A DNA stretch of 39,624 nucleotides, from UHGV virus genome UHGV-0068444. The stretch is one strand, 5' to 3'. A program made the position numbers and the translations under genes. The stretch's first letter is position 1. Each line of letters begins with the position of its first letter. The DNA is from a virus. The notes below the pieces were generated by a model. It saw nothing but the letters and a program-made list of their open reading frames with translations, made no database searches and was not told the origin of the DNA. Shown here piece by piece: positions 50-19,854 of this stretch.

Positions 50-667
50 GTGAAACGCATAAGGATAAAGAAACCAAGATGGATTTTTGTTATTTTATTT
101 TTTGTATTTTTAGGTATTCCATTATTTATTGATGGTATCAAGTATACTGATTACGCTTCAGAGAATTTGCTGCCTGAATTTACTGGTGTAATACTTGAGT
201 TTGTAATCATTCTTTATGTTATTGATTATATTCAAAAGAAAAATGAGCGTGATAATAAAATAAAAGCAGAAAAACGTTTGCGTGAAATGTTTATTTTTTT
301 CTTTAATAAACTGAATGACCACGTTCCTGAAAATTGCAGGATCGGATCTTTTTACGGGCGAGAGCATGATAAAAATAAGCGTCAAATGTCATTAATGAAA
401 GCCCATATAGAAAAACATGGGCTAGATGAAAAGGCAATAAGAGAAATTCGTATTCATTGCAAAGGTGATATTGATTTATTCAATAGTTTTATTCCAGTTG
501 TTGCTACATTAGAAGAGCAGCATTTAAAAGCATGGACGAGAATTTCATATTACATGAATGCAATAATTACGGAAAGAGAAACTGTACAATTTTCCGTTAT
601 AAAAATCATTGATAAAATACAGACATTTGATGATGCATCCTATAATAATAAACTGATAGTAGATTAA
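50..667 (+). CDS. Hypothetical membrane protein (two N-terminal hydrophobic helices plus charged cytoplasmic domain); AT-rich cargo gene
   Basis: 205-aa ORF with GTG start and AGGT-type RBS; visibly AT-rich versus the adjacent int; converges on and overlaps the int stop by 4 nt. Confidence 0.5.
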   Translation: MKRIRIKKPRWIFVILFFVFLGIPLFIDGIKYTDYASENLLPEFTGVILEFVIILYVIDYIQKKNERDNKIKAEKRLREMFIFFFNKLNDHVPENCRIGSFYGREHDKNKRQMSLMKAHIEKHGLDEKAIREIRIHCKGDIDLFNSFIPVVATLEEQHLKAWTRISYYMNAIITERETVQFSVIKIIDKIQTFDDASYNNKLIVD

Positions 668-1791
668 GAGGGTATTTTTTGCCATTCTTTACCTCTGTCA
701 TCATGATATTTATCTGTTTGATGCTGGGTTTTATGACCCAGCAATTTTTGTGTATCAATTCCCTGGTCTTTGTAAAGACGTTCAGACAATGATCTTTGCT
801 CATGGAATGTAGCGGGTGTTCCATCTCCCCATTTAATACAAGCCTTATCCCTCGCCTTACTGAAATTCATCGTTAATGTGTTCGATTTAACTTGTGCGCC
901 TCGTTTAGCCTGTGATGTAGCTCGGAAAAAGTGAATCAGATAGGGGCTAACTGCATAATCTCGACAGCGCGCAACGACGTCACGTAAACTCCAGTTAATC
1001 GCATTGAGGCGAAGAGAAAGAGGTATAGCAATTTTGCTGCCGGTTTTTTCCTGTTCGATATGCAGATGATCATCCCAGATATCGCTAAATTTCATTTTGG
1101 ATATGTCACCAAGACGTTGCCCAGTCACAAGGGCAAGCAGCATTGCATTTCCCATATATTGATGTTTCTTATCTGCGATATCGAAAATCTTCAGCCACTC
1201 TTCGAGACTAAGTCGTTGTCTGGTAATCTTGCGCCTGGGCTGTTTAGTAGCAAGGGCAGGGTTGTGACCAGGCGGCACTTCACCGTAGTGTTGGGCCTCT
1301 TTGAAAACATCGATCAGTACTGAACGAACAACTTGTGCCATTCTTGGTTGACCTGCAGATAGATACTCTTCAAGAATTTGAGCAATATCCCTGACATCAA
1401 CAGAAGATATGAGCTTCATTCCCGCACGTTCCTTAAGAAGTGCAACTGGCTTGGCTTTTTGTTTATACGTATTCTCCTTGATATCACCTGAAGCGAATCT
1501 TTCCTCCTGAATTTTCCAGTACCGCTCAAGCCAGGTAACAGTGGTAATTGACTTACCCTTGCCGGTAGCAATTCGATCGCTTATAGCCAGTACCTGTCTT
1601 GAACGCTGCTCAGCAAGTCTTGCGTTTGCCTCAGTAGCAATTGCTTTAGCCTCAACTTCATCAGTACCTAGGCTGTGAAATTTCCCCGTTACAGGATGCT
1701 TGTACCTCCAATACACTTTATTGACCTTACGACTGTATAGTGGATAGAGGTTAGGTATTGATACATTATTTTTACGTGGTCTCGCAGCCAT
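664..1791 (-). CDS. int: Tyrosine integrase, lambda Int family
   Basis: Start at MAARPRKNNVSIPNLY (ORF extends to 1869); N-terminus and C-terminal HEQRSLSERLY...LLGHK...YHDDRG region parallel lambda Int arm-binding and catalytic motifs. Confidence 0.9.
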   Translation of the reverse strand: MAARPRKNNVSIPNLYPLYSRKVNKVYWRYKHPVTGKFHSLGTDEVEAKAIATEANARLAEQRSRQVLAISDRIATGKGKSITTVTWLERYWKIQEERFASGDIKENTYKQKAKPVALLKERAGMKLISSVDVRDIAQILEEYLSAGQPRMAQVVRSVLIDVFKEAQHYGEVPPGHNPALATKQPRRKITRQRLSLEEWLKIFDIADKKHQYMGNAMLLALVTGQRLGDISKMKFSDIWDDHLHIEQEKTGSKIAIPLSLRLNAINWSLRDVVARCRDYAVSPYLIHFFRATSQAKRGAQVKSNTLTMNFSKARDKACIKWGDGTPATFHEQRSLSERLYKDQGIDTQKLLGHKTQHQTDKYHDDRGKEWQKIPS

Positions 1792-2017
1792 CGCTGAGGA
1801 TCCTTTGCAATTTTGGTGAATCAGATTTCTTGATAACCGGCGCAGCAAGTTCTCCAACCAATTCCGCATCCTCCCTAACTCTCCAGAGCCTACCTTGCTT
1901 CATTGCTGGTGGAGAAAAGAGATTTTGCTTAGCGTAACGGCGCAATGTCGAGACGCTAGGTGGATTACTTCTGTATTTATCGGTTGCCCATTCTTCAAGA
2001 GTTAACATCTGAATCAT
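1772..2017 (-). CDS. xis: Excisionase (lambda Xis-like)
   Basis: 81 aa; MLTLEEWA...RRYAKQNLFSPP resembles lambda Xis MYLTLQEW...RRWVRECRIFPPP; GGAG RBS; overlaps int start as in lambda. Confidence 0.75.
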   Translation of the reverse strand: MIQMLTLEEWATDKYRSNPPSVSTLRRYAKQNLFSPPAMKQGRLWRVREDAELVGELAAPVIKKSDSPKLQRILSDGCETT

Positions 2018-11327: not shown

Positions 11328-11714
11328 ATGAGGCTCATACTCCCATTTCCACCCAGCGTGAACACTTACTGGCGCGCTCCTAACAAGGGGGCGCAGGCTG
11401 GTCGTCACCTCATTAGCGCTGAAGGCCGTAAATACCAGAGCGCTGCCTGCGTGGCGATCATTGAGCAATTACGACGTCTCCCGAAGCCATCGACTGAACT
11501 GGCAGCGGTAGAAATCACTCTGTACCCGCCGGATGCGCGCCGCCGGGATATCGATAATTACAACAAAGCCCTGTTTGACGCGCTGACGCATGCGGGTGTC
11601 TGGGAAGATGACAGCCAGATTAAGCGCATGCTGGTGGAATGGGGACCCGTAGTGCCGAAAGGTCGGGTAGAGATAACGATCAGCAGATATGAACCGGCGG
11701 GTGCAGCCGCCTGA
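11328..11714 (+). CDS. rusA: RusA-family Holliday junction resolvase
   Basis: 128 aa; LPFPPSVNTYWR...RRRDIDNYNKALFDALTHAGVWEDDSQI parallels E. coli RusA. Confidence 0.85.
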   Translation: MRLILPFPPSVNTYWRAPNKGAQAGRHLISAEGRKYQSAACVAIIEQLRRLPKPSTELAAVEITLYPPDARRRDIDNYNKALFDALTHAGVWEDDSQIKRMLVEWGPVVPKGRVEITISRYEPAGAAA

Positions 11715-11727
11715 TATGGAGAAAAGT

Positions 11728-12414
11728 ATGAGCCAGTTAATCGTGAATGGTGTAGTAACAATGTCCAGCCGTGATATTGCGGATCTGGTTCAGAGTAAAC
11801 ACAGTGACGTGAAACGCTCGGCTGAGCGTCTTGTTGCTGCGGGAATTTTAACCGCGCCATTGGCGCAGTTCGATTTTGAGCATAACGGTAATGTGTACCA
11901 GGAGTATCGTTTTAACAAACGCGACTCTCTGGTGATTGTTGCCAGACTGTCACCTGAATTTACCGCCGCGGTCGTCGATCGCTGGCAGGAACTGGAAGAA
12001 GGGCAGAGTGTCAGTGTTCCCCGCTCATTACCGGAAGCGCTTCGCCTGGCTGCTGATTTAGCCGAGCAGAAAGAGCAACTGACGATCCAACTGGCAGCCG
12101 CGGCGCCAAAAGTGGAGTTTGTTGATCGTTATTGCTCAGCAAAAGGCTCCATGTCATTCCGGCAGGTAGCCAAATTGCTTAACGCAAAAGAAACTGAGTT
12201 TCGTCTGTTCCTTATTGAACGCAATATCCTGTATCGCCTCGGCGGCACACTTACCCCCATGGCGCAGCACATTTCCGCGGGAAGATTTGAAGTTAAGACG
12301 GGAACATCGAGCACATCCAATCACGCATTCAGCCAGACGCGTTTCACTGCCAAGGGAGTACGCTGGATTGGTGGTTTGTGGGCTGAACATATTGCAGGGG
12401 GGCAAGCGGCGTGA
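11728..12414 (+). CDS. Rha-family regulator with C-terminal KilA-C/antirepressor-like domain
   Basis: Start MSQLIVNG after GGAG RBS (ORF extends to 11689); N-terminal Rha-like region, C-terminal antirepressor-like region. Confidence 0.6.
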   Translation: MSQLIVNGVVTMSSRDIADLVQSKHSDVKRSAERLVAAGILTAPLAQFDFEHNGNVYQEYRFNKRDSLVIVARLSPEFTAAVVDRWQELEEGQSVSVPRSLPEALRLAADLAEQKEQLTIQLAAAAPKVEFVDRYCSAKGSMSFRQVAKLLNAKETEFRLFLIERNILYRLGGTLTPMAQHISAGRFEVKTGTSSTSNHAFSQTRFTAKGVRWIGGLWAEHIAGGQAA

Positions 12415-13406
12415 GGGCTTTGTTAACTCCTGAAGTAGCCCATCGCATGGGGATTGTGTTGTTTCGTCCCGGCGCGGAACTGATGCACCTCTTCATGCGC
12501 GGTCGCGTCCTTCTCGAACCTGAACCAGAAGAAATGGCGTCATTCAGTACAGGAGCTGTTCCCGCCGCCATTCAGCCGCTGGCTGATGATCCGGTAATGC
12601 GGCAGGTCTTCGGGAATGAGCGGGTTATTCAGCGTGCCGGTGGGCTTCCTTCCCTTGAGCAATGGTTGAGTACCCGGTTTGATTGCCAGTGGCCACATTC
12701 ATCGTGGCACGACAAGAACTTCACAACAATGCGGCACCCACCAGGAAGCATTCGCCTGTGCTGGCATTGCGATCACACTTTGTCCGGGCAGCATACTGAA
12801 CAGCTTGCAGTTATAGCTGCCGGAAACCTGGTATCCTGGATTCTGGAAGTCATTCGGCGTGATTCTGGTTTTCCCGAGTCGCATATCCTGACGCTTCCGG
12901 AACTGTGCTGGTGGATGGTCAGAAACGACCTGGCTGATGTTATTCCGGAAAGCGTTGCGCACAGGGGGTTGCGCCTTCCGGATGAGAAGATCCGCTCTGT
13001 CATGAGGGAAAGCGACATAGTGCCTTCCCCGTCTGCAACCAGCCTCGTGCAGAAGAAAGCGAAGAAGATCCTCACGCTCTCTGTTGATCCGGAGTCTCCT
13101 GAATCTTTCATGCTCAGGCCAAAACGCCGCCGCTGGGTAAATGAGACATACACCCGCTGGGTTAAAACACAACCCTGTGAGTGTTGCCGACGGCCAGCAG
13201 ATGATCCGCACCATATCGTAGGGCACGGTTTGGGTGGTACAGCAACAAAAGCCCATGACCTCTTCGTGATCCCTCTGTGCAGAGAGTGCCACGACGAGTT
13301 ACACGCCGATGTACCGGCATTCGAGCAGAAGCATGGTACGCAGCTTGAGCTGCTACTGCGTTTTATGGATCGGGCGCTGGCGATCGGCGTAATTGCGAAA
13401 GCTTAA
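12411..13406 (+). CDS. DUF968-family phage protein (YdfU-like) with Cys/His-rich C-terminus
   Basis: 331 aa; GTG start overlapping the upstream stop; C-terminal CECC...HHIVGHG...CRECHDELH cluster; lies directly upstream of the Q-like gene as ydfU does in Qin. Confidence 0.5.
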   Translation: MRALLTPEVAHRMGIVLFRPGAELMHLFMRGRVLLEPEPEEMASFSTGAVPAAIQPLADDPVMRQVFGNERVIQRAGGLPSLEQWLSTRFDCQWPHSSWHDKNFTTMRHPPGSIRLCWHCDHTLSGQHTEQLAVIAAGNLVSWILEVIRRDSGFPESHILTLPELCWWMVRNDLADVIPESVAHRGLRLPDEKIRSVMRESDIVPSPSATSLVQKKAKKILTLSVDPESPESFMLRPKRRRWVNETYTRWVKTQPCECCRRPADDPHHIVGHGLGGTATKAHDLFVIPLCRECHDELHADVPAFEQKHGTQLELLLRFMDRALAIGVIAKA

Positions 13407-13427
13407 GTGTATGGAGCGCAAAGAAGC

Positions 13428-14117
13428 ATGAATCAACAAGACCTGAATTTTGTAAGAATAGAATTGCGCCGCGCGCTACCTGACCTCTCTGGGGGAACAA
13501 AAGGGCAGCTTGAGGCTTTCAGTGAACACCCACCAGCAGACAAAAATGCCACCCCGCGCCGTGGAATTCATCTCGTCGAACTCGAAGGAGAGAAGGGGCC
13601 TCGCTTTGTTAACTCGCTTTCCGCGCCATTGTATGTATTGGAAACACGCAGCCGCTGCAGGCCAATGCCGCCGATAAAAGATGCGGAATTTGAGTCCGCG
13701 CCGTGGCGTAGGGCAGTGTCCGCGCTTAGTGGATACCAGCAGGCCTGGTTGCGGTACTGCTACGGTTTTGACCTTAGCTATAAGCACCAGGTGATGATGT
13801 GTGAATACGTCTGGAAAACTTATCAGAAATGTCTGGGTGATAATTCCCTTCAGGAGCGCGTAGTAAAGAAACTGATTGGCCTGGTATGGCTGGCAGGGCA
13901 GGAAATTGCCGCAACCAGAAATAATGAAACCTATAAAGACTATGCTGGTGCAGCGTTGGCCCGCATGGTTAGCGTTGATCGTTCGACATGGTTGCGTGTC
14001 TATTCAGGGCACTGGGCTGGGTTAAAGGCCGCTTTTACCCAGCTTGATGAATCTGCGTTGGCAATGGCTCTTGAATACTATGAGGAAGAAGAAGCCCTCA
14101 AAGTGGCAGAAATGTAA
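13428..14117 (+). CDS. Late-gene antitermination protein, Q-like
   Basis: Start MNQQDLNF (alternative GTG at 13407); position between nin-like genes and a tR'-type terminator; family assignment by context and recollection. Confidence 0.55.
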   Translation: MNQQDLNFVRIELRRALPDLSGGTKGQLEAFSEHPPADKNATPRRGIHLVELEGEKGPRFVNSLSAPLYVLETRSRCRPMPPIKDAEFESAPWRRAVSALSGYQQAWLRYCYGFDLSYKHQVMMCEYVWKTYQKCLGDNSLQERVVKKLIGLVWLAGQEIAATRNNETYKDYAGAALARMVSVDRSTWLRVYSGHWAGLKAAFTQLDESALAMALEYYEEEEALKVAEM

Positions 14118-14212
14118 AGTAAATTTCACTATCTCCTTCAAACGCGCTTGCAAAATGCAACAAAATAAGCCATATTTAAAGCGTATTTGATATGTTGCCA
14201 AAGTTTTATAAA
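14118..14212 (+). promoter_or_regulatory. Presumed late promoter (PR') and Q-utilisation region
   Basis: Inferred from position between the Q-like gene and the tR'-like terminator; candidate -35 TTGCAA and -10 TATTTA hexamers; exact site not determined. Confidence 0.35.
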
Positions 14213-14233
14213 CCCGCCAATGAGCGGGTTTTT
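14213..14233 (+). terminator. tR'-like intrinsic terminator
   Basis: cccgc-caatga-gcggg hairpin followed by TTTTT, about 100 nt downstream of the Q-like stop. Confidence 0.7.
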
Positions 14234-14280
14234 GCGTTATAATTCACCGATTTAAACCAATTGTTTTAAATAGGTGAAGT

Positions 14281-15132
14281 ATGAAAATAGATAATCCCGA
14301 AAATCCACTTGAACGAAACGATTTTTCGATGGATGACTTCCATCACTACTTAAGGGAGTTTGATAAAGCTGTATGTGAAGCGAATGCTGTAAGTCAGGGG
14401 GTTGGTGTGCGAATGGCTGAGGCTTTTAAAGGGTGGTCTACATACATTTTTTCACGAATCTGCATTCATGCTTCAATAATGATTTCCAACGTACCAAAAT
14501 CAAGATGGGCTAAGCGGGATTATGACTTTTGGGATTTTTCGGCGATTGCACCTCATGTAAGAGCGATTCTGGAAGCTGAGTTATTGTTTATGTATTTATC
14601 TGAGAATCCAGATTCAACTGAGGAGTGGTCAGCAAAGTTGAATGTCATGCACATGAATGATTGTGTAAAGAGAATTGAGTTATTTACATCTAGTGATAAT
14701 ACGAAAGCATTGGATTTTTATCATGAACAAAAAGATATAATAACTGAGAGACTTAATAACAACCCTGTTTTTTTATCCCTTGAACAAGGAACCAGAAAAC
14801 GTTGCTTGACTGGAAAAGCGCTTATGATTCCAAATCGAGATGAGTTATTGGTTAAACTGGGAAAAGATCCAAAGTCATTTAAAATAATGTTCGATTTTTT
14901 ATCTCATTATACGCATATACTACCTATGTCATATTATAAAATGGAGCCAAACGGAAGAGGAACTGGTTGTTTTAACAACTATGACTTTGGCTATATGATT
15001 ATGGGGATGATTATTTGTACTGAATCCTTGACTAAGTGTACAGATAGATTAGTAGAACTTTTTCCTGATGTTAGACGGTTGCGAAAAGGAACTAAATCAA
15101 AATTCACGTTAGGTCCTAAACCTACAAAATAA
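14281..15132 (+). CDS. AT-rich hypothetical protein (283 aa), cargo gene; function unknown
   Basis: ATG after AGGTGAAG RBS; visibly lower GC than flanking phage genes; no hydrophobic segments; no motif recognised. Confidence 0.6.
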   Translation: MKIDNPENPLERNDFSMDDFHHYLREFDKAVCEANAVSQGVGVRMAEAFKGWSTYIFSRICIHASIMISNVPKSRWAKRDYDFWDFSAIAPHVRAILEAELLFMYLSENPDSTEEWSAKLNVMHMNDCVKRIELFTSSDNTKALDFYHEQKDIITERLNNNPVFLSLEQGTRKRCLTGKALMIPNRDELLVKLGKDPKSFKIMFDFLSHYTHILPMSYYKMEPNGRGTGCFNNYDFGYMIMGMIICTESLTKCTDRLVELFPDVRRLRKGTKSKFTLGPKPTK

Positions 15133-15162
15133 CAATGAGTCGCTTGCTGCTATTTTAAAGGC

Positions 15163-15185
15163 TTCCAAATGGAAGTCTTTTATAA
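15163..15185 (+). terminator. Weak hairpin terminator after the 14281-15132 gene
   Basis: cttcc-aaat-ggaag stem-loop followed by tcttttat. Confidence 0.35.
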
Positions 15186-15350
15186 TTTCAGGTTTCGCAA
15201 ATTATACTTATCTTCACATTTTCATAATAGCGCATAAGCCAGCCCCCCCTCCATCAACCACAGCGCCATACGAACTATCGGAGGTGAGGCTAAATTAGTA
15301 ATCGTTCTTACCTGCACAGGTGCATAAAAATCAGCCTAAAATGCGAGTTT

Positions 15351-16013
15351 TTATGAAGAGAGCAGCATGACTTTTTCTTTTGCGGGCGAAGGTGACTGCT
15401 CTTTCAAAGGGAAAATTATAAATGCTATAAATGCAGTAAATAATACTATGAAAGCTAGCACTGTAACTTTCCTTGAAGATGATAGGGCTTTGTTATATTC
15501 CTTGGCTATTTTGTTCGTTATATGGATCTTAGTGCTATTTATTTCATCTTTTAGTATGGATAATTTATTTATAAATTCCTGTGTTTCTTCTCGAGAGTAA
15601 AGTTCTGAAGCATCTCTTGGGGTTTCATGTGGATGCCGAGTATAACCAAGTATTTGTGGTATTAAATTACCATGCGATTGAACTACAGATTCATATTTCT
15701 TATAGCAAGCATTATCAAAAAATCTCATTCTTATGCTAAGTTCTCTGAGTTTGTCAACGTCTAGAGAAACTTGTTCGTTGGCAATAATTAAATCTCCGCG
15801 GTTTAATGTATTCTTGTGTTGAAAAATTAGTAAAAGCCATTCTGTATTATTGTAAAGCTTTTCAAGATTGGCATGTATATCAAGTCCGAGTTTTTCATAT
15901 GCGGATAATTTGACCTCTTTTTCCTTTGCAGAAAGAGAAGATGAATAAGCCAGTAATCCGCTTATTATGGCAACAATAAATGTTCCTATAATGGTTAAGG
16001 TATTCGAGTCCAT
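15351..16013 (-). CDS. AT-rich hypothetical membrane protein (one N-terminal and one C-terminal TM helix), cargo gene
   Basis: Start MDSNTLTIIGTFIVAIISGLL (ORF extends to 16070); C-terminal VLAFIVLFTAFIAFIIF hydrophobic helix; convergent with the 14281 gene. Confidence 0.55.
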   Translation of the reverse strand: MDSNTLTIIGTFIVAIISGLLAYSSSLSAKEKEVKLSAYEKLGLDIHANLEKLYNNTEWLLLIFQHKNTLNRGDLIIANEQVSLDVDKLRELSIRMRFFDNACYKKYESVVQSHGNLIPQILGYTRHPHETPRDASELYSREETQEFINKLSILKDEINSTKIHITNKIAKEYNKALSSSRKVTVLAFIVLFTAFIAFIIFPLKEQSPSPAKEKVMLLSS

Positions 16014-16120
16014 TGTATTCTTCAAAAGTTGGTCAAAAATATATTGTAATATTTTAATGTATAAAATCAATCATTTCCCCTCATTCTGAGAGGACTCCCA
16101 GCAACAAAGAGGGGGGCTAA

Positions 16121-16507
16121 ATGTCCGATCCGATTTCCGGTTCTGGGATGGCTGGTGGTGTCCTGACGGGGGCCAGCGTCTATGGATTTCTGTCCGGAAC
16201 CGATTACGGCGTGGTGTTTGGCGCATTTGCCGGGGCTGTATTTTACATTGCAACCGCAGCGGATCTAAGTGCAGCGCGCCGACTGGCATATTTTCTGGTG
16301 TCGTATATTGCGGGGATCCTTTGTTCCGGGCTGGTGGGTTCAAAGCTGGCTCAGGCTACCGGCTACAGTGATAAACCACTGGATGCCATTGGCGCCGTAA
16401 TCGTTTCTGCTTTAGCCGTCAAAATCCTGACATTCCTGAATAATCAGGATGTCGGCTCGCTGGTGGCGCTGATAACGCGCCGGGGAGGTTCAGGTGGTAC
16501 AAAATGA
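16121..16507 (+). CDS. Putative holin (three predicted TM segments)
   Basis: 128 aa, Gly/Ala-rich hydrophobic segments; first gene of the lysis cassette upstream of endolysin. Confidence 0.55.
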   Translation: MSDPISGSGMAGGVLTGASVYGFLSGTDYGVVFGAFAGAVFYIATAADLSAARRLAYFLVSYIAGILCSGLVGSKLAQATGYSDKPLDAIGAVIVSALAVKILTFLNNQDVGSLVALITRRGGSGGTK

Positions 16508-16775
16508 CCCATCGGCAACTTTTAATGCATTGCTTTGTGCTGGGGTAGTGTTAACCCTGATGTTTTACCGTCGCGGCGACTCGCGACATCGACCGTGGAT
16601 ATCTCGCTTAGCGTGGCTGCTTACGGTCATCTACAGCGCCGTTCCGCTGGCGTATCTGTGCGGTATTTACCCGTACTCATCATGGGCCACTATCGGGGCC
16701 AACTTTATTTTCCTGTCCGTGCTGGTCGCCGTAAGAGGCAACGTGGCACGTCTGGTTGATCATCTGAGGCACTAA
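16494..16775 (+). CDS. Second small membrane lysis protein (holin or antiholin-like)
   Basis: 93 aa, three hydrophobic segments; overlaps the upstream gene; stop overlaps the endolysin start. Confidence 0.45.
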   Translation: MVQNDPSATFNALLCAGVVLTLMFYRRGDSRHRPWISRLAWLLTVIYSAVPLAYLCGIYPYSSWATIGANFIFLSVLVAVRGNVARLVDHLRH

Positions 16776-17389
16776 TGAACCAATCACAATTTCAGCAGGC
16801 GGCTGGTATCAGCGCCGGGCTTTCTGCGCGCTGGTTTCCGCACATTGACGCGGCAATGAAAGAGTTTGGCATTACAGCTACGAACGATCTGGCTATGTTC
16901 ATCGCCCAGGTTGGGCATGAGTCTGCTGGCTTTACCTCGCTGGTGGAAAGCTTCAACTACTCGGTAGAGGGGCTGAAGAAAACCTTTGGTAAACGGCTTA
17001 CTCCTTATCAGTGTGAAATGCTGGGTCGTGTCGATGGTAAGCAGGTGGCCCACCAGCCGCAAATAGCCAATCTGGTTTATGGTGACCGCATGGGGAATAA
17101 CAGCCAGGGTGACGGCTGGAAATATCGCGGTCGCGGCCTGCTGCAAATCACGGGTCGTGAGAACTACACCAAATGCGGCACGGCGCTGAAACTTGACCTT
17201 ATCAGTACGCCAGAATTGCTAACGCAAGAGCGACATGCGGCTCGTTCGGCTGCGTGGTACTTCACGTTACGCGGTTGCCTGATGTATTCGGGTGACGTGG
17301 CACGCGTTACGCAGATTATTAACGGCGGACAGAACGGCATTAAAGACCGCCGTGAACGTTACGCCAAAGCTAAAGCTGCACTGGTGTGA
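16775..17389 (+). CDS. Endolysin, glycoside hydrolase family 19 (chitinase-like lysozyme)
   Basis: 204 aa; AQVGHESAGF...YRGRGLLQITGRENY resembles the GH19 catalytic core. Confidence 0.8.
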   Translation: MNQSQFQQAAGISAGLSARWFPHIDAAMKEFGITATNDLAMFIAQVGHESAGFTSLVESFNYSVEGLKKTFGKRLTPYQCEMLGRVDGKQVAHQPQIANLVYGDRMGNNSQGDGWKYRGRGLLQITGRENYTKCGTALKLDLISTPELLTQERHAARSAAWYFTLRGCLMYSGDVARVTQIINGGQNGIKDRRERYAKAKAALV

Positions 17390-17396
17390 GGTCAGT

Positions 17397-17666
17397 ATGG
17401 GGCTTGAAATGATTATCGGCCTGGTTGTTGCTGTGCTGGCTGCAATTGCAGGTGCTTTTGGGCTGGGCAAATCACGCGGTACCAGTATCGCTGAAACAAA
17501 AGCGGACCAACAACGCACTGAAGAACGTGCAATAGCTATTGAAGCGGTTGCAGAACGCCGGGTAGAAACAACAAAAGGAGCCAGGGATGTACAACAGACT
17601 GTTAACCATATGCCTGATGACGCTGCTGATCGCGAGCTGCGCAAAAACTGGACACGTAAGGATTGA
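17397..17666 (+). CDS. Inner-membrane spanin (Rz-like)
   Basis: Start MGLEMIIGLVVAVLAAIAGAFGL (N-terminal TM) after GAGG RBS; charged coiled-coil-like remainder; directly after endolysin. Confidence 0.6.
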   Translation: MGLEMIIGLVVAVLAAIAGAFGLGKSRGTSIAETKADQQRTEERAIAIEAVAERRVETTKGARDVQQTVNHMPDDAADRELRKNWTRKD

Positions 17667-17808
17667 GGTTATTGACACCGGCTGCGATTGGGTAAAACCC
17701 ATCTACGGCACTGCTCATGATTGGGAAGTGCTGGACAGGCAGACCAAGAAAGACATTCTTATGCATAACAAAGTGTGGATGTCAAACTGTGGCTCTATAA
17801 CTTATTGA
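17587..17808 (+). CDS. Outer-membrane lipoprotein spanin (Rz1-like), overlapping Rz out of frame
   Basis: MYNRLLTICLMTLLIASC has a lipobox (LIASC); starts inside the Rz-like ORF in another frame. Confidence 0.6.
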   Translation: MYNRLLTICLMTLLIASCAKTGHVRIEVIDTGCDWVKPIYGTAHDWEVLDRQTKKDILMHNKVWMSNCGSITY

Positions 17809-18459
17809 TTTTGTTTTTTTGTTGTCTACCATATCAGGCAATGTGAAGGCATATAGAAGAAATACTTCGGTGAAACCAATCATTTCTTGAGCATCTTCTT
17901 TTGAAAATTCTTCATCAGAATGAACTGCTCCATTGGAATCGATTCGAACTATATGTGCCCATTCCCTCATTTGATCTGTAATCAGTCCCTTAGCATGCAA
18001 CATAGAAATCCGTTTAACCAATTTTTCATCTTTTGAGTCATTTCCCAGTAACTCCCGTGTAGCAATGTCCAAGACTTTACGGCAAAGCATAACGGATGTG
18101 TCGAAACGACAGCGCCCTAAGTTGTCTTTTGCTTCTATGAAAGCCATAGCAGCACGTGGCGGAGTGTGTTCGGGGGCGTTAAGGAGGGTGGGTTTCGGGA
18201 TGATATCAATCAACTGGTACTCAGTATTTCCAGGAATGATTACGTTTACATCATTATTTTGCCTAGATTTTGCACGAGGTAAATAACCACCGGGATTATT
18301 CATTTTTACAATAGCAATACCTGATTGAAAACAGCTTCGACAACAAAATGCAATATTAACTAAAGGCCCGGCGTTGATACGCAGTTCTGCCCATCCTTCA
18401 AGGACAGCATTTTCCCTCAGACAATGTGGGCAAGTGATATCGAAAGTGAGAATTCGCAT
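17782..18459 (-). CDS. Hypothetical protein with N-terminal zinc-ribbon (CPHC...CCRSC) and C-terminal helical domain; reverse-strand cargo gene
   Basis: Start MRILTFDITCPHCL after GGAG RBS (ORF extends to 18504); moderately AT-rich; C-terminal region loosely reminiscent of DUF4145-type domains (unverified). Confidence 0.55.
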   Translation of the reverse strand: MRILTFDITCPHCLRENAVLEGWAELRINAGPLVNIAFCCRSCFQSGIAIVKMNNPGGYLPRAKSRQNNDVNVIIPGNTEYQLIDIIPKPTLLNAPEHTPPRAAMAFIEAKDNLGRCRFDTSVMLCRKVLDIATRELLGNDSKDEKLVKRISMLHAKGLITDQMREWAHIVRIDSNGAVHSDEEFSKEDAQEMIGFTEVFLLYAFTLPDMVDNKKTKSISYRATV

Positions 18460-19140
18460 GACTCTACTCCATACATTAAAAGAAATTGAAAATGAATTAC
18501 ACAATGCACAACGACCTGAGTCTACACTCCTTCAACGATATGAAGTATCGAATGAGATTAAAAAAAAGGAGTTTGTAGTCGCTTTGATCGGTAAACTGAT
18601 AGAATTGGACCGCCGTCTCTATGTCACATCATTGAAGCCTTAGTTTCAATTTTACCGATTTATCGCTTAAGGGGTAGGACTTCAACACTACTAAGTGAGC
18701 ATTGCAGCAGGCATTCAGGGGAATGCTGTGACAGTAGTTAGCTAGGGTAAACCGTTTGCGCCTGGGGATTTTACTTTGCGACGGAAAATTAAAAAACTAT
18801 ATGATTTCTTATCCCACTAGGATGTCTGCGGACTACTACTGACTGTTTAGGCTATTACGAGGGGCTCAAACTCAACGTCTGGCATCAACGCAGAACTGAA
18901 AAAGTCGCCATGAATGTGGTTACGGTATTTGGTGGGATATAAACGTACCTTCATTTCTAAGCTTGATAATCACCTTTGTCCGAATTGCCTACGCGATAGT
19001 CATGTAGTTTTAGTCATAACCGTTTACCCTATTGATGTCAAGATAAATTGGATAACACTGATGAATCGAACCTCTAAATCCTTTGATGGGCCACTCATAG
19101 CTGACTGGTTCAAAAAAGTGTTATCAATGGTATGATAAGT

Positions 19141-19204: not shown

Positions 19205-19474
19205 ATGTCGAATGTAAAAAAAATAGATGCTATAGTTCAAAATTTATTTGAATTCAGAGATGCTACAGGTGAACTTACGGATAAAAATATTGTTTTAATA
19301 CAAAAAATCATAACGAACTTACCTGACTATGCTGGTAAGGATCCATATGAATTTTATTCATCATTTTCTGAAGATATTAATGAGTCGCTCAAAGCAATTG
19401 CCAATTATCATAAGGCACATGCTAAATACATTAATGCCCTCGATAAATTAGCAGAGCTTAGGTCGGAGGGGTAA
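19205..19474 (+). CDS. Small hypothetical soluble protein (89 aa), first gene of an AT-rich cassette
   Basis: Very AT-rich ORF; stop lies 2 nt before the start of the next gene. Confidence 0.55.
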   Translation: MSNVKKIDAIVQNLFEFRDATGELTDKNIVLIQKIITNLPDYAGKDPYEFYSSFSEDINESLKAIANYHKAHAKYINALDKLAELRSEG

Positions 19475-19476
19475 TA

Positions 19477-19854
19477 ATGGCTACGGAAGATATTCAGGCT
19501 TTGTTATCTAAAGTTAATGCGTTAAGATTTGAAGATAAAAGAATAGAGAAGGAAACAGGAGAGATTGAAAATGAAATTCAGGCTCAATTTCTTCGTGATG
19601 GTAAAACAAGGAGTACATTAACCATAACATTTATGAGAGGCTTTTTTGGTCTTATCGTTTTTTCTTTTATATTTGTGATAGCTTATAACTATTGCGCAGT
19701 GCAATGGGTACTTCAATTACAAAGCAAAGGGCTCATGGAGGCTTCTAAAAGTATCGCACTACTTGAGTTAGATAAGGTGTTATCTATTATGGTTAGTGCG
19801 TTAGGAACATCTCTTGGGTTTATAATTGGCTATTATTTTAAAGACAAAAAATAA
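19477..19854 (+). CDS. Hypothetical membrane protein (125 aa): charged helical N-terminus plus two C-terminal TM helices
   Basis: FFGLIVFSFIFVIAYNY and VLSIMVSALGTSLGFIIGYYF hydrophobic segments; followed by a strong terminator. Confidence 0.55.
   Translation: MATEDIQALLSKVNALRFEDKRIEKETGEIENEIQAQFLRDGKTRSTLTITFMRGFFGLIVFSFIFVIAYNYCAVQWVLQLQSKGLMEASKSIALLELDKVLSIMVSALGTSLGFIIGYYFKDKK

Follow-up and report, generated by a model that had tools for sequence, protein, structure and literature searches.

The window analysed here is the whole 39,624-nt stretch UHGV-0068444, a virus genome, and our subject is its Q-to-holin junction, where two open reading frames (ORFs), ORF1 and ORF2, lie between the gene of a Q-type late antiterminator and the lysis genes. 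The junction is a mosaic in which two genes that are independent of each other, hold fixed positions and evolve at contrasting rates stand side by side. The explanation that best joins these observations, which we regard as plausible if not quite probable, is that ORF1 and ORF2 are two independent single-gene accessory cassettes that came to abut in the leader of the late operon; the logic of their expression would follow from their signals and orientation, and the functions that we propose for them are guesses. The slot and its wiring are already known, and both gene families are uncharacterised. The junction is built as follows.

13407-14117, plus strand: Q-type late antiterminator gene (PF06323, E 3.7e-36; phrog_304, E 2.1e-71)
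14148-14176, plus strand: putative promoter pR' (TTGCAA, 17-nt spacer, CATATT), read by eye, under the threshold of the promoter scan and absent from its output
14210-14231, then TT to 14233, plus strand: tR'-type hairpin, AAACCCGC-CAATGA-GCGGGTTT (-12 kcal/mol, z -3.0)
14281-15132, plus strand: ORF1, 283 amino acids (aa), soluble, DUF5677-like and divergent
15157-15190, plus strand: second intrinsic terminator predicted by scan, a 10-bp stem with a T-rich tail (-12.5 kcal/mol, z -4.3)
15262-15292, plus strand: recombination scar, a holin_2-type leader and ribosome-binding site (RBS) whose ATG is gone, from alignment with the Klebsiella prophage L080
15351-16013, minus strand: ORF2, 220 aa, two transmembrane (TM) helices, orphan family
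16070 to 16043, minus strand: sigma-70-like promoter of ORF2 predicted by scan (TTGATT, 16-nt spacer, TACAAT)
16075-16120, plus strand: holin_8 leader, a short inverted repeat and RBS, part of the lysis module; homology to cassettes lacking ORF2 begins at 16075-16084
16121-17389, plus strand: lysis cassette of Phage_holin_8 (16121-16507), Phage_holin_3_7 (16494-16775) and a GH19 endolysin (16775-17389), from Pfam and PHROGs

Independent distribution of ORF1 and ORF2

We searched a collection of 5.8 billion proteins for relatives of both genes and found at least 282 for ORF1 and 18 for ORF2; a profile search of 1.84 billion representatives gave 15 clusters for ORF2. The two genes occur together only in the present phage lineage. 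Among the IMG/VR loci, two full-length loci are identical to the window, and a third window-identical contig ends inside ORF1. Elsewhere each gene is found alone at the junction. ORF1 stands alone on the late strand directly after Q in prophages of Citrobacter freundii, Enterobacter bugandensis, Hafnia alvei and Klebsiella. ORF2 stands alone and antisense in seven further lineages (eight including the window), namely Enterobacter mori (a cryptic prophage at icd), Kosakonia sacchari, Citrobacter braakii, two IMG/VR contigs and two distant relatives, whose proteins share just 30% and 42% identity with that of the window.

The positions of both genes are fixed. A Q gene belonging to one of four families ends just upstream of the ORF1 relative in 21 of 26 IMG/VR loci, and lysis genes of several types (including holin_8/GH19, holin_2/lysozyme and GH108) follow it in about 20 of the 26, many of the counted loci being mutually related, so that these counts overstate the number of independent observations. 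In every lineage, ORF2 is flanked on one side by a Q-type gene (DUF1133, Phage_antitermQ or PF03589) and on the other by a holin_8 cassette or its leader. One ORF1 sequence at 90% identity or more is indexed in 353 blocks of a public collection, mostly Klebsiella prophages, and the 90%-identity cluster of ORF1, which covers E. coli, Klebsiella, Citrobacter and Raoultella, is far wider than that of ORF2. No match to ORF2 was found in plasmids. Neither gene was matched among 50,697 sequenced phage isolate records, using megablast of the island DNA and tblastn of both proteins.

These distributions bear on the view of the earlier note that the region is a two-gene island. A single two-gene system, either a lysogen defence with a late antidote like Tai/Ati or a toxin with its immunity gene, would account for a layout that resembles the noncontiguous operon of phi80, in which an antisense gene lies beside a late-strand gene, and for the fact that both genes are similarly AT-rich and travel together in every copy of this phage. 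It is opposed by the seven lineages with ORF2 and no ORF1, by about 20 phage loci with ORF1 and no ORF2, by the recombination scar between the genes and by the spread of the ORF1 cluster far beyond that of ORF2. We consider such a system very improbable and have given up the two-gene view: each gene is found alone at this junction elsewhere, a scar separates them, and they are joined in this lineage only.

Mosaic origin of the junction

Positions 13064-15292 of the window are colinear with the Klebsiella prophage L080 at 77% nucleotide identity. The match takes in Q, the hairpin, ORF1 and the ORF1 terminator as well as the 3' part of the DUF968 gene, and it ends at 15292, exactly at the start codon of the L080 holin_2 gene. 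The RBS of this holin_2 is retained in the window without its ATG (GGAGGTGAGGCTAAATTAG in the window and GGAGGTGAGGCTATG in the relative). To the right, positions 15712-16778 match the Citrobacter phage L010 at 85%, covering the first 100 codons of ORF2 and both holins, and positions 11334-13390 match the same Citrobacter phage at 93%. Because the colinearity with L080 ends at the holin_2 start and a match to L010 follows on its right, we read the window as a recombinant in which a Klebsiella-type "Q-tR'-ORF1-terminator" module was set before an "ORF2-holin_8" module. ORF2 is itself recombinant in the window: its first 100 codons match the Citrobacter allele at 85% nucleotide identity and the remainder does not match that allele.

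Composition, edges and variability of the slot

The junction belongs to the right arm of a lambdoid prophage, with the upstream gene order RusA, Ant, DUF968 protein and Q (public gene calls place the start of Q slightly later, giving 229 aa). The GC content drops from about 0.53 to 0.32-0.39 over approximately 14000-16100. For positions 14234-16075 it is 0.347, relative to a mean of 0.499 (standard deviation 0.053; 1.84-kb windows), and none of the 756 sliding windows is lower; the values for ORF1 and ORF2 are 0.357 and 0.335. The earlier note had described an AT-rich stretch directly behind a tR'-type hairpin, with two convergent genes at 14281-15132 (plus strand) and 15351-16013 (minus strand), the first soluble and the second with N- and C-terminal TM helices. 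This description was borne out in each respect: the stretch is the most AT-rich 1.8 kb of the window, the hairpin folds at -12 kcal/mol (z -3.0), both genes are present, and hydropathy agrees with both protein types. Our promoter and terminator calls are consensus matches and have the standing of sequence predictions. Rfam and tRNA scans of the entire window returned nothing.

The left edge of the slot, position 14233, is the foot of the hairpin, where homology to the most similar E. coli Q module, from a Nissle prophage, stops, and its right edge, at about 16075-16084, is the start of homology to E. coli lysis cassettes without ORF2. The alignment shows that the GCTTGCAA block at the putative pR' is common to Nissle and to loci L009 and L047, and that the tR'-type hairpin is kept across phages with differing Q families. 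An inverted repeat in the holin_8 leader, CCCCTCATTCTGAGAGG at 16078-16094 on the plus strand, is kept in ORF2-bearing loci and folds no better than shuffled sequence (z -0.85). Homology to the E. coli lysis cassettes begins within the stretch holding this repeat.

Relatives that share either side of the slot carry other genes in it. In the Nissle prophage, whose Q module is almost the same, the slot holds an SDH-family Clp-fold serine proteinase, a DNA methyltransferase and two ORFs of 68 and 63 aa. Among genomes with the same lysis cassette, DA33137 has one 85-aa ORF and CFSAN061769 has ORFs of 89 and 264 aa. The genes in these three slots are quite different, which indicates that the slot is variable. 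This supports the proposal that the junction is a site for accessory cargo, and it answers the question of whether the junction is otherwise empty: in the relatives it is occupied, by different genes.

A DNA methyltransferase of about 350 aa recurs in the slot on the late strand (loci L012-L016, L059, L068 and L070, and Nissle, L022). It is of the N6_N4_Mtase family where Pfam was checked (L015/L016). The gene lies downstream of an ORF1 homologue in the former loci and occurs without one in Nissle. This recurrence suggests that the slot also carries genes plausibly needed late, for instance for methylating progeny DNA.

Selection and rates of evolution

In every pairwise comparison of ORF1 and of ORF2, the proportion of nonsynonymous differences (pN) is far below that of synonymous differences (pS), and both are genuine genes under purifying selection. 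The two genes evolve at contrasting rates. ORF1 is 89% identical in protein sequence to the Klebsiella copy, relative to 61% for the adjacent Q, and its comparison with the Hafnia copy gives a pN of 0.069 and a pS of 0.685 (dN/dS about 0.04). The dN/dS of ORF2 is 0.13-0.26 where it can be computed, and pairs of ORF2 proteins are 28-55% identical as against 63-98% for the adjacent holin_8 proteins. For L009 and L047 the values are 55% for ORF2 and 98% for holin_8.

These patterns are difficult to reconcile with the view that both genes are hitch-hiking or decaying passengers without current function. That view could draw on their lack of family annotations, on the foreign, AT-rich character of the DNA and on the absence of both genes from the phage isolates. 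It is countered by the intactness of both ORFs under purifying selection and by an ORF1 that is more conserved than Q and near-identical across the 353 blocks, as well as by the position and frame of ORF2, which are kept down to about 30% identity, and by confident AlphaFold2 (AF2) models. We judge it highly unlikely.

Protein family and fold of ORF1

The earlier note could assign neither protein to a family, which still holds for the orphan ORF2 but no longer for ORF1, a relative of DUF5677. The Pfam model of DUF5677 (PF18928) has 166 positions, of which 25-156 align with ORF1 residues 84-219 at 21.7 bits (E 2.3e-4), under the gathering threshold of 27.1 bits. This model matches 30 of 39 ORF1 relatives at E<=0.01 and 33 of them at E<=1, with a best value of 1.1e-8, and many relatives carry precomputed PF18928 matches or the NCBI name "DUF5677 domain-containing protein". 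By transitive homology, we class ORF1 as a divergent, full-length DUF5677 subfamily, which differs from DUF5677 in its length of about 280 aa, its additional N-terminal helices and its conserved basic C-terminal tail. To our knowledge DUF5677 has no known function, and a literature search for DUF5677 or PF18928 yielded only two mentions, both in passing. The family has been found enriched beside serine recombinases that mark defence loci. Of nine candidates, five gave protection to E. faecalis, and the one DUF5677 ORF tested was not one of these five.

The AF2 model of ORF1 has twelve helices, a predicted local distance difference test (pLDDT) score of 89.0 and a predicted template-modelling score (pTM) of 0.87. 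The protein has no TM-like segment (top 19-residue Kyte-Doolittle mean 1.19). Across the family, 28 positions are invariant, including D28, C61, R75, W76, R94, E98, D127, C128, R131, S208, H212, Y219 and R226, together with the loop NGRGTG (224-229) and the basic tail RKGxKSKFxxGPK.

The searches of Pfam, PADLOC and Foldseek that had been suggested as checks returned only DUF5677 for ORF1 and nothing for ORF2. With the PADLOC-DB 2.0 library, dated 2023, neither protein of the window was matched at E<=0.1, and the 39 ORF1 relatives gave only scattered matches at chance level at E<=1. ORF1 was not matched in PHROGs or NCBIfam. The best Foldseek match of ORF1 in the PDB has an E of 0.33, a profile search against PDB sequences was also empty, and Foldseek against BFVD gave nothing at E<=0.001 for either protein.

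Two candidate identities for ORF1 were considered and rejected. A HEPN RNase, prompted by the neighbouring DUF4145 gene and by the all-alpha fold, is contradicted by the lack of an Rx4-6H motif: the sole invariant histidine, H212 in LSHYTH, has no arginine 4-6 residues upstream in any of the 39 sequences. HEPN-family Pfam matches were absent among ORF1 relatives even at E<=1, and the fold of ORF1 was not matched in the PDB. A Fic-like protein, suggested by eye from LSHYTH and NGRGTG, lacks both the canonical Fic motif and a fold match.

Homologues of ORF1 are also found outside phages. The neighbours are type I-F cas genes in a Pseudomonas megaplasmid, an upstream DUF4365-TPR protein in Vibrio, an integrase and a RelE/ParE pair in Photobacterium, and flanking insertion sequence elements in P. 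amygdali; a conjugative plasmid of Shewanella carries a further homologue. A conserved partner was sought and rejected, since the 58 neighbouring proteins from 13 genomes include no Pfam family that occurs in more than two. ORF1 is probably an enzyme and a mobile, stand-alone protein. All phage contexts have it on the late strand, a hint that lytic growth profits from its activity or at least tolerates it, and this placement makes counter-defence or host manipulation somewhat likelier than defence.

Expression signals of ORF1

The ATG of ORF1 lies 48 nt past the tR' hairpin and is preceded by a good Shine-Dalgarno sequence. A hairpin with a T-run is found upstream of ORF1 homologues in 22 of 27 loci, and a hairpin within 50 nt past the ORF1 stop in 21 of 27. 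These bracketing hairpins fold at -12 to -13.3 kcal/mol (z -3.0 to -4.3). The downstream stems comprise at least nine distinct sequences, indicating that a terminator structure is kept while its sequence turns over. A sigma-70 scan from tR' to the ORF1 ATG gave no site. The simplest reading of these signals is that ORF1 would be the first gene of the late transcript. The argument for expression in the lysogen does not apply to ORF1, which is on the late strand directly behind tR'.

Alternatively, ORF1 could be a classical moron with its own promoter after tR', transcribed in the lysogen, closed by its own terminator and encoding a defence or host-fitness protein. ORF1 does show the terminator, the low GC content and the accessory status of a moron, and on the promoter side it has a -10-like hexamer only. 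This hexamer (TATAAT, TACAAT or TATAAC) is present 36-45 nt before the ATG in four lineages, and the dedicated downstream terminator in most loci fits the same reading, as do the homologues near type I-F cas genes, near the DUF4365-TPR protein and on plasmids, and the occurrence of DUF5677 near defence-linked serine recombinases. On the other side, there is no acceptable -35 and no promoter in the scan, and the gap from hairpin to ATG is short and nearly constant. The late strand in all phage contexts would give strong lytic expression, which is awkward for a defence protein; the evolution of ORF1 is slow, PADLOC gave no match, and the tested DUF5677 ORF was not protective. On balance we see the moron as possible but rather unlikely.

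Protein structure and position of ORF2

We place the start of ORF2 at the ATG at 16013, as all homologues begin with MDSNT. Public annotation starts the gene at a TTG at 16070 (239 aa, P0072), and the promoter-like site from 16070 to 16043 lies inside that extension. The AF2 model (pLDDT 81.8) is a long helical hairpin (helices 3-66 and 141-204) with a small helical domain at its far end, and the TM segments cover approximately residues 5-27 and 181-204. Lysine and arginine residues number none in the N-tail, four after helix 1, four to five before helix 2 and two to three in the C-tail, where they are balanced by acids. This distribution points to an N-out/C-out topology with a predicted cytoplasmic central domain. 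Conservation is concentrated at the membrane end: the majority fraction is 0.92-0.94 in residues 1-45 and 0.60-0.78 elsewhere. The conserved end consists of TM helix 1 and the motif S(T/A)KEKE(I/V)KLxxYEKLG, and in distant relatives only A15, G19, E31, E40, G43 and Y173 are invariant.

ORF2 had no match of note in Pfam, PHROGs, NCBIfam, PADLOC or a profile search of PDB sequences, and no holin family was matched at E<=0.1 in Pfam or PHROGs. At E<=1, distant relatives gave two Hol_Tox matches (E 0.5) and one match to a "hol-like chemotaxis" PHROG (E 0.035), which is chance level. A holin, antiholin or spanin as a lysis protein was rejected as an identity for ORF2, which is on the opposite strand and matches no holin or spanin family.

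Expression signals of ORF2

A promoter-like site precedes the ORF2 ATG by 30 nt and borders on the holin leader; its -35 (TTGATT) is kept in five of the six lineages compared (the window, L006, L009, L010 and L047). In the phages with ORF2 only, the ORF2 stop abuts the tR'-type hairpin, which reads as a terminator both ways. Structure past the ORF2 stop in the window is not significant (z 0.21), because the ORF1 cassette separates ORF2 from the tR' hairpin. A plus-strand promoter scan between ORF2 and the holin gave no site, so the late transcript would have to cross all of ORF2 in the antisense sense. The idea that the minus-strand gene is favoured in the lysogen fits these signals: the gene is antisense in every lineage and is served by its own promoter-like site, whose -35 is conserved. 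Moron features found for ORF2 are the predicted promoter, the two-way hairpin of the ORF2-only phages, a GC content of 0.335 and its absence from E. coli relatives with the same lysis cassette. As a pattern argument, a conserved membrane end, a fast-changing, presumably cytoplasmic domain and a lysogen-type promoter are what would be expected of an exclusion or abortive-infection protein.

A distant phage with ORF2 (L084, 5697-5723) has its ORF2 and Q stops just 27 bp apart, an interval taken up by one hairpin. No space is left for a late promoter after Q, and pR' of this phage would therefore have to be within the 3' end of Q.

The constant company of a holin raises another possibility, that ORF2 is an accessory of the holin_8 cassette, for instance a holin antagonist expressed in the lysogen, which would act as a buffer against leaky late transcription or keep superinfecting phages of the same holin type from lysing the cell. 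In all eight lineages, ORF2 has a divergently oriented Phage_holin_8 cassette or its leader as its neighbour, whereas ORF1 occurs with several lysis types, and ORF2 is a small membrane protein whose first TM helix is very conserved. Yet the lysis cassette of the window is matched by 261 complete E. coli genomes, none of which has ORF2, indicating that the holin does not need it. ORF2 also diverges much faster than the holin, and the single shared holin type comes from lineages that are related. We find this role quite unlikely. Co-evolution of ORF2 and holin_8 was rejected as a line of evidence: their identities correlate weakly (r 0.41-0.45; 15 non-independent pairs), and we treat this correlation as uninformative.

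A model of two abutted cassettes

Under the explanation that we favour, cassette A would consist of pR', tR', ORF1 and the second terminator, and would have come with the Q module from a Klebsiella-type phage. ORF1 would be nearly silent in the lysogen; without Q, at most read-through polymerase would reach it, and the second terminator would halt that polymerase ahead of the lysis genes. Q would make the polymerase terminator-resistant and thereby allow full expression of ORF1, as for stx. Its product would be a cytoplasmic, enzyme-like protein serving lytic growth, with counter-defence or host manipulation as our guess at the most likely role. Cassette B would be ORF2, transcribed toward Q from its own sigma-70 promoter and switched on in the lysogen. 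Q-modified polymerase crossing ORF2 in the opposite sense would lower its output during lytic growth. Our guess is that ORF2 is most likely an inner-membrane superinfection-exclusion or abortive-infection factor.

Several points weigh against this model. A -10-like TATAAT at 14238-14243, after tR', recurs in relatives without a usable -35, and for this reason ORF1 may itself possess a weak promoter. The terminator behind ORF1 is best understood if polymerase lacking the Q modification does enter the gene. At 35% GC, H-NS could silence both genes in an E. coli lysogen. The location of ORF2, always beside holin_8, could mean a role in lysis rather than exclusion. The ORF1 homologues on plasmids and chromosomal islands have no constant partner and are uninformative on a lytic role. 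Neither protein matches PADLOC, a PHROG, or a solved or viral predicted structure. Finally, the presence of DUF5677 near defence-linked recombinases points towards defence over counter-defence; the tested member was not protective.

A further joint reading, which we regard as improbable, would make ORF2 a new class of prophage immunity and ORF1 a new Q-switched, all-alpha enzyme fold. ORF2 would then combine a conserved TM effector end with a hypervariable cytoplasmic sensor, fixed beside holin_8 and turned off by the late transcription of the phage itself, and it might, for example, trigger or block membrane permeabilisation upon sensing a superinfecting phage. ORF1 would be the first late product in many Klebsiella, Enterobacter, Citrobacter and E. 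coli prophages and would neutralise a host defence that senses late phage proteins.

Comparison with known systems

The stx genes of Stx (Shiga toxin) phages are cargo of the late leader whose output depends on Q antitermination and prophage induction (PMC8065619). ORF1 resembles stx in slot and strand, behind a Q-controlled terminator and ahead of the holin, and by analogy its output would be expected to depend on the same two conditions. Unlike Stx, ORF1 has no sequence or fold similarity to the toxin and no signal peptide, and it is predicted to be a single cytoplasmic, all-alpha protein.

The closest parallels to ORF2 are of two kinds. HK97 gp15, P22 SieA, lambda RexB and T4 Imm are inner-membrane exclusion or abortive-infection proteins. 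ORF2 is similar to them as a small, membrane-anchored and fast-evolving prophage protein in a single-gene, moron-type cassette, and it differs in a predicted cytoplasmic helical domain of about 150 residues between its two helices and in having no similarity in the libraries searched. In its arrangement, ORF2 resembles Tai of phi80, an antisense gene in the Q-driven late operon that is constitutive in the lysogen and reduced under Q expression (PMC11364771, within which HK97 gp15 is cited). Both are antisense, embedded in a Q-driven late operon and equipped with their own promoter, which is a prediction for ORF2. In contrast to ORF2, Tai is located between the lysis genes and terminase and always occurs with its cognate late-strand antidote, Ati; ORF2 is a membrane protein with no constant neighbour except Q and the holin.

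In cryptic lambdoid prophages, porin and lipoprotein genes (nmpC, bor and lom) form accessory cargo close to the Q-to-lysis region, with expression from the prophage, as proposed for ORF2. The nmpC gene of DLP12 lies antisense between a Q homologue and the holin. The products of these three genes are outer-membrane proteins with signal peptides and known folds, none of which applies to ORF2.

Other genes of the prophage

Additional genes of the window were noted in passing. An antisense gene at 17782-18504 (minus strand) lies between the lysis cassette and the HNH/terminase genes. Its product combines a Cys4 zinc-ribbon-like segment at the N-terminus (CPHC...CCRSC) with a DUF4145 domain at the C-terminus (PF13643, E 8.4e-11), and its PADLOC match to PD-T7-4 is weak (E 0.0019). 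The current name of PD-T7-4 is RAZR, a zinc-finger HEPN RNase for which assembly on phage portal-like rings is the activating step (PMC13017515). It is therefore probable that the slot occupied by Tai in phi80 holds a RAZR-like abortive-infection gene in this phage.

Two AT-rich ORFs (GC about 0.30-0.35) of 89 and 125 aa, at 19205-19474 and 19477-19854 on the plus strand, lie upstream of the packaging genes; the latter has a hydrophobic C-terminal half. Both are present in all copies of the phage, and neither was matched in PADLOC or NCBIfam. At the prophage end, beside the integrase (664-1869, minus strand), an AT-rich ORF of 205 aa at 50-667 (plus strand) has two hydrophobic N-terminal segments, and its equivalent in one assembly has the integrase gene on one side and the host icd gene on the other. 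This ORF may be a further piece of cargo beside the attachment site. A putative spanin pair with overlapping ends was identified by eye from translations at 17292-17808 (plus strand): the first ORF, of 89 aa in public calls, has its end at 17666 and encodes the hydrophobic stretch MGLEMIIGLVVAVLAAIAG, and the second, at 17587-17808, starts with a lipoprotein-like signal, LLIASC.

Significance

Genes of uncharacterised families are to be expected in this slot, and our finding is a useful lead rather than a surprise. A function for ORF1 would annotate hundreds of clinical genomes and give DUF5677 its first assignment. ORF2 offers a test case for two ideas: that an antisense placement in the late operon acts as a switch that is on in the lysogen and off in lysis, and that a conserved anchor joined to a variable domain is the mark of an exclusion protein. 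The Q-to-holin leader is the slot of the Stx toxin, and other cargo that is wired to Q antitermination, or shielded from it, shows how temperate phages time their accessory functions.

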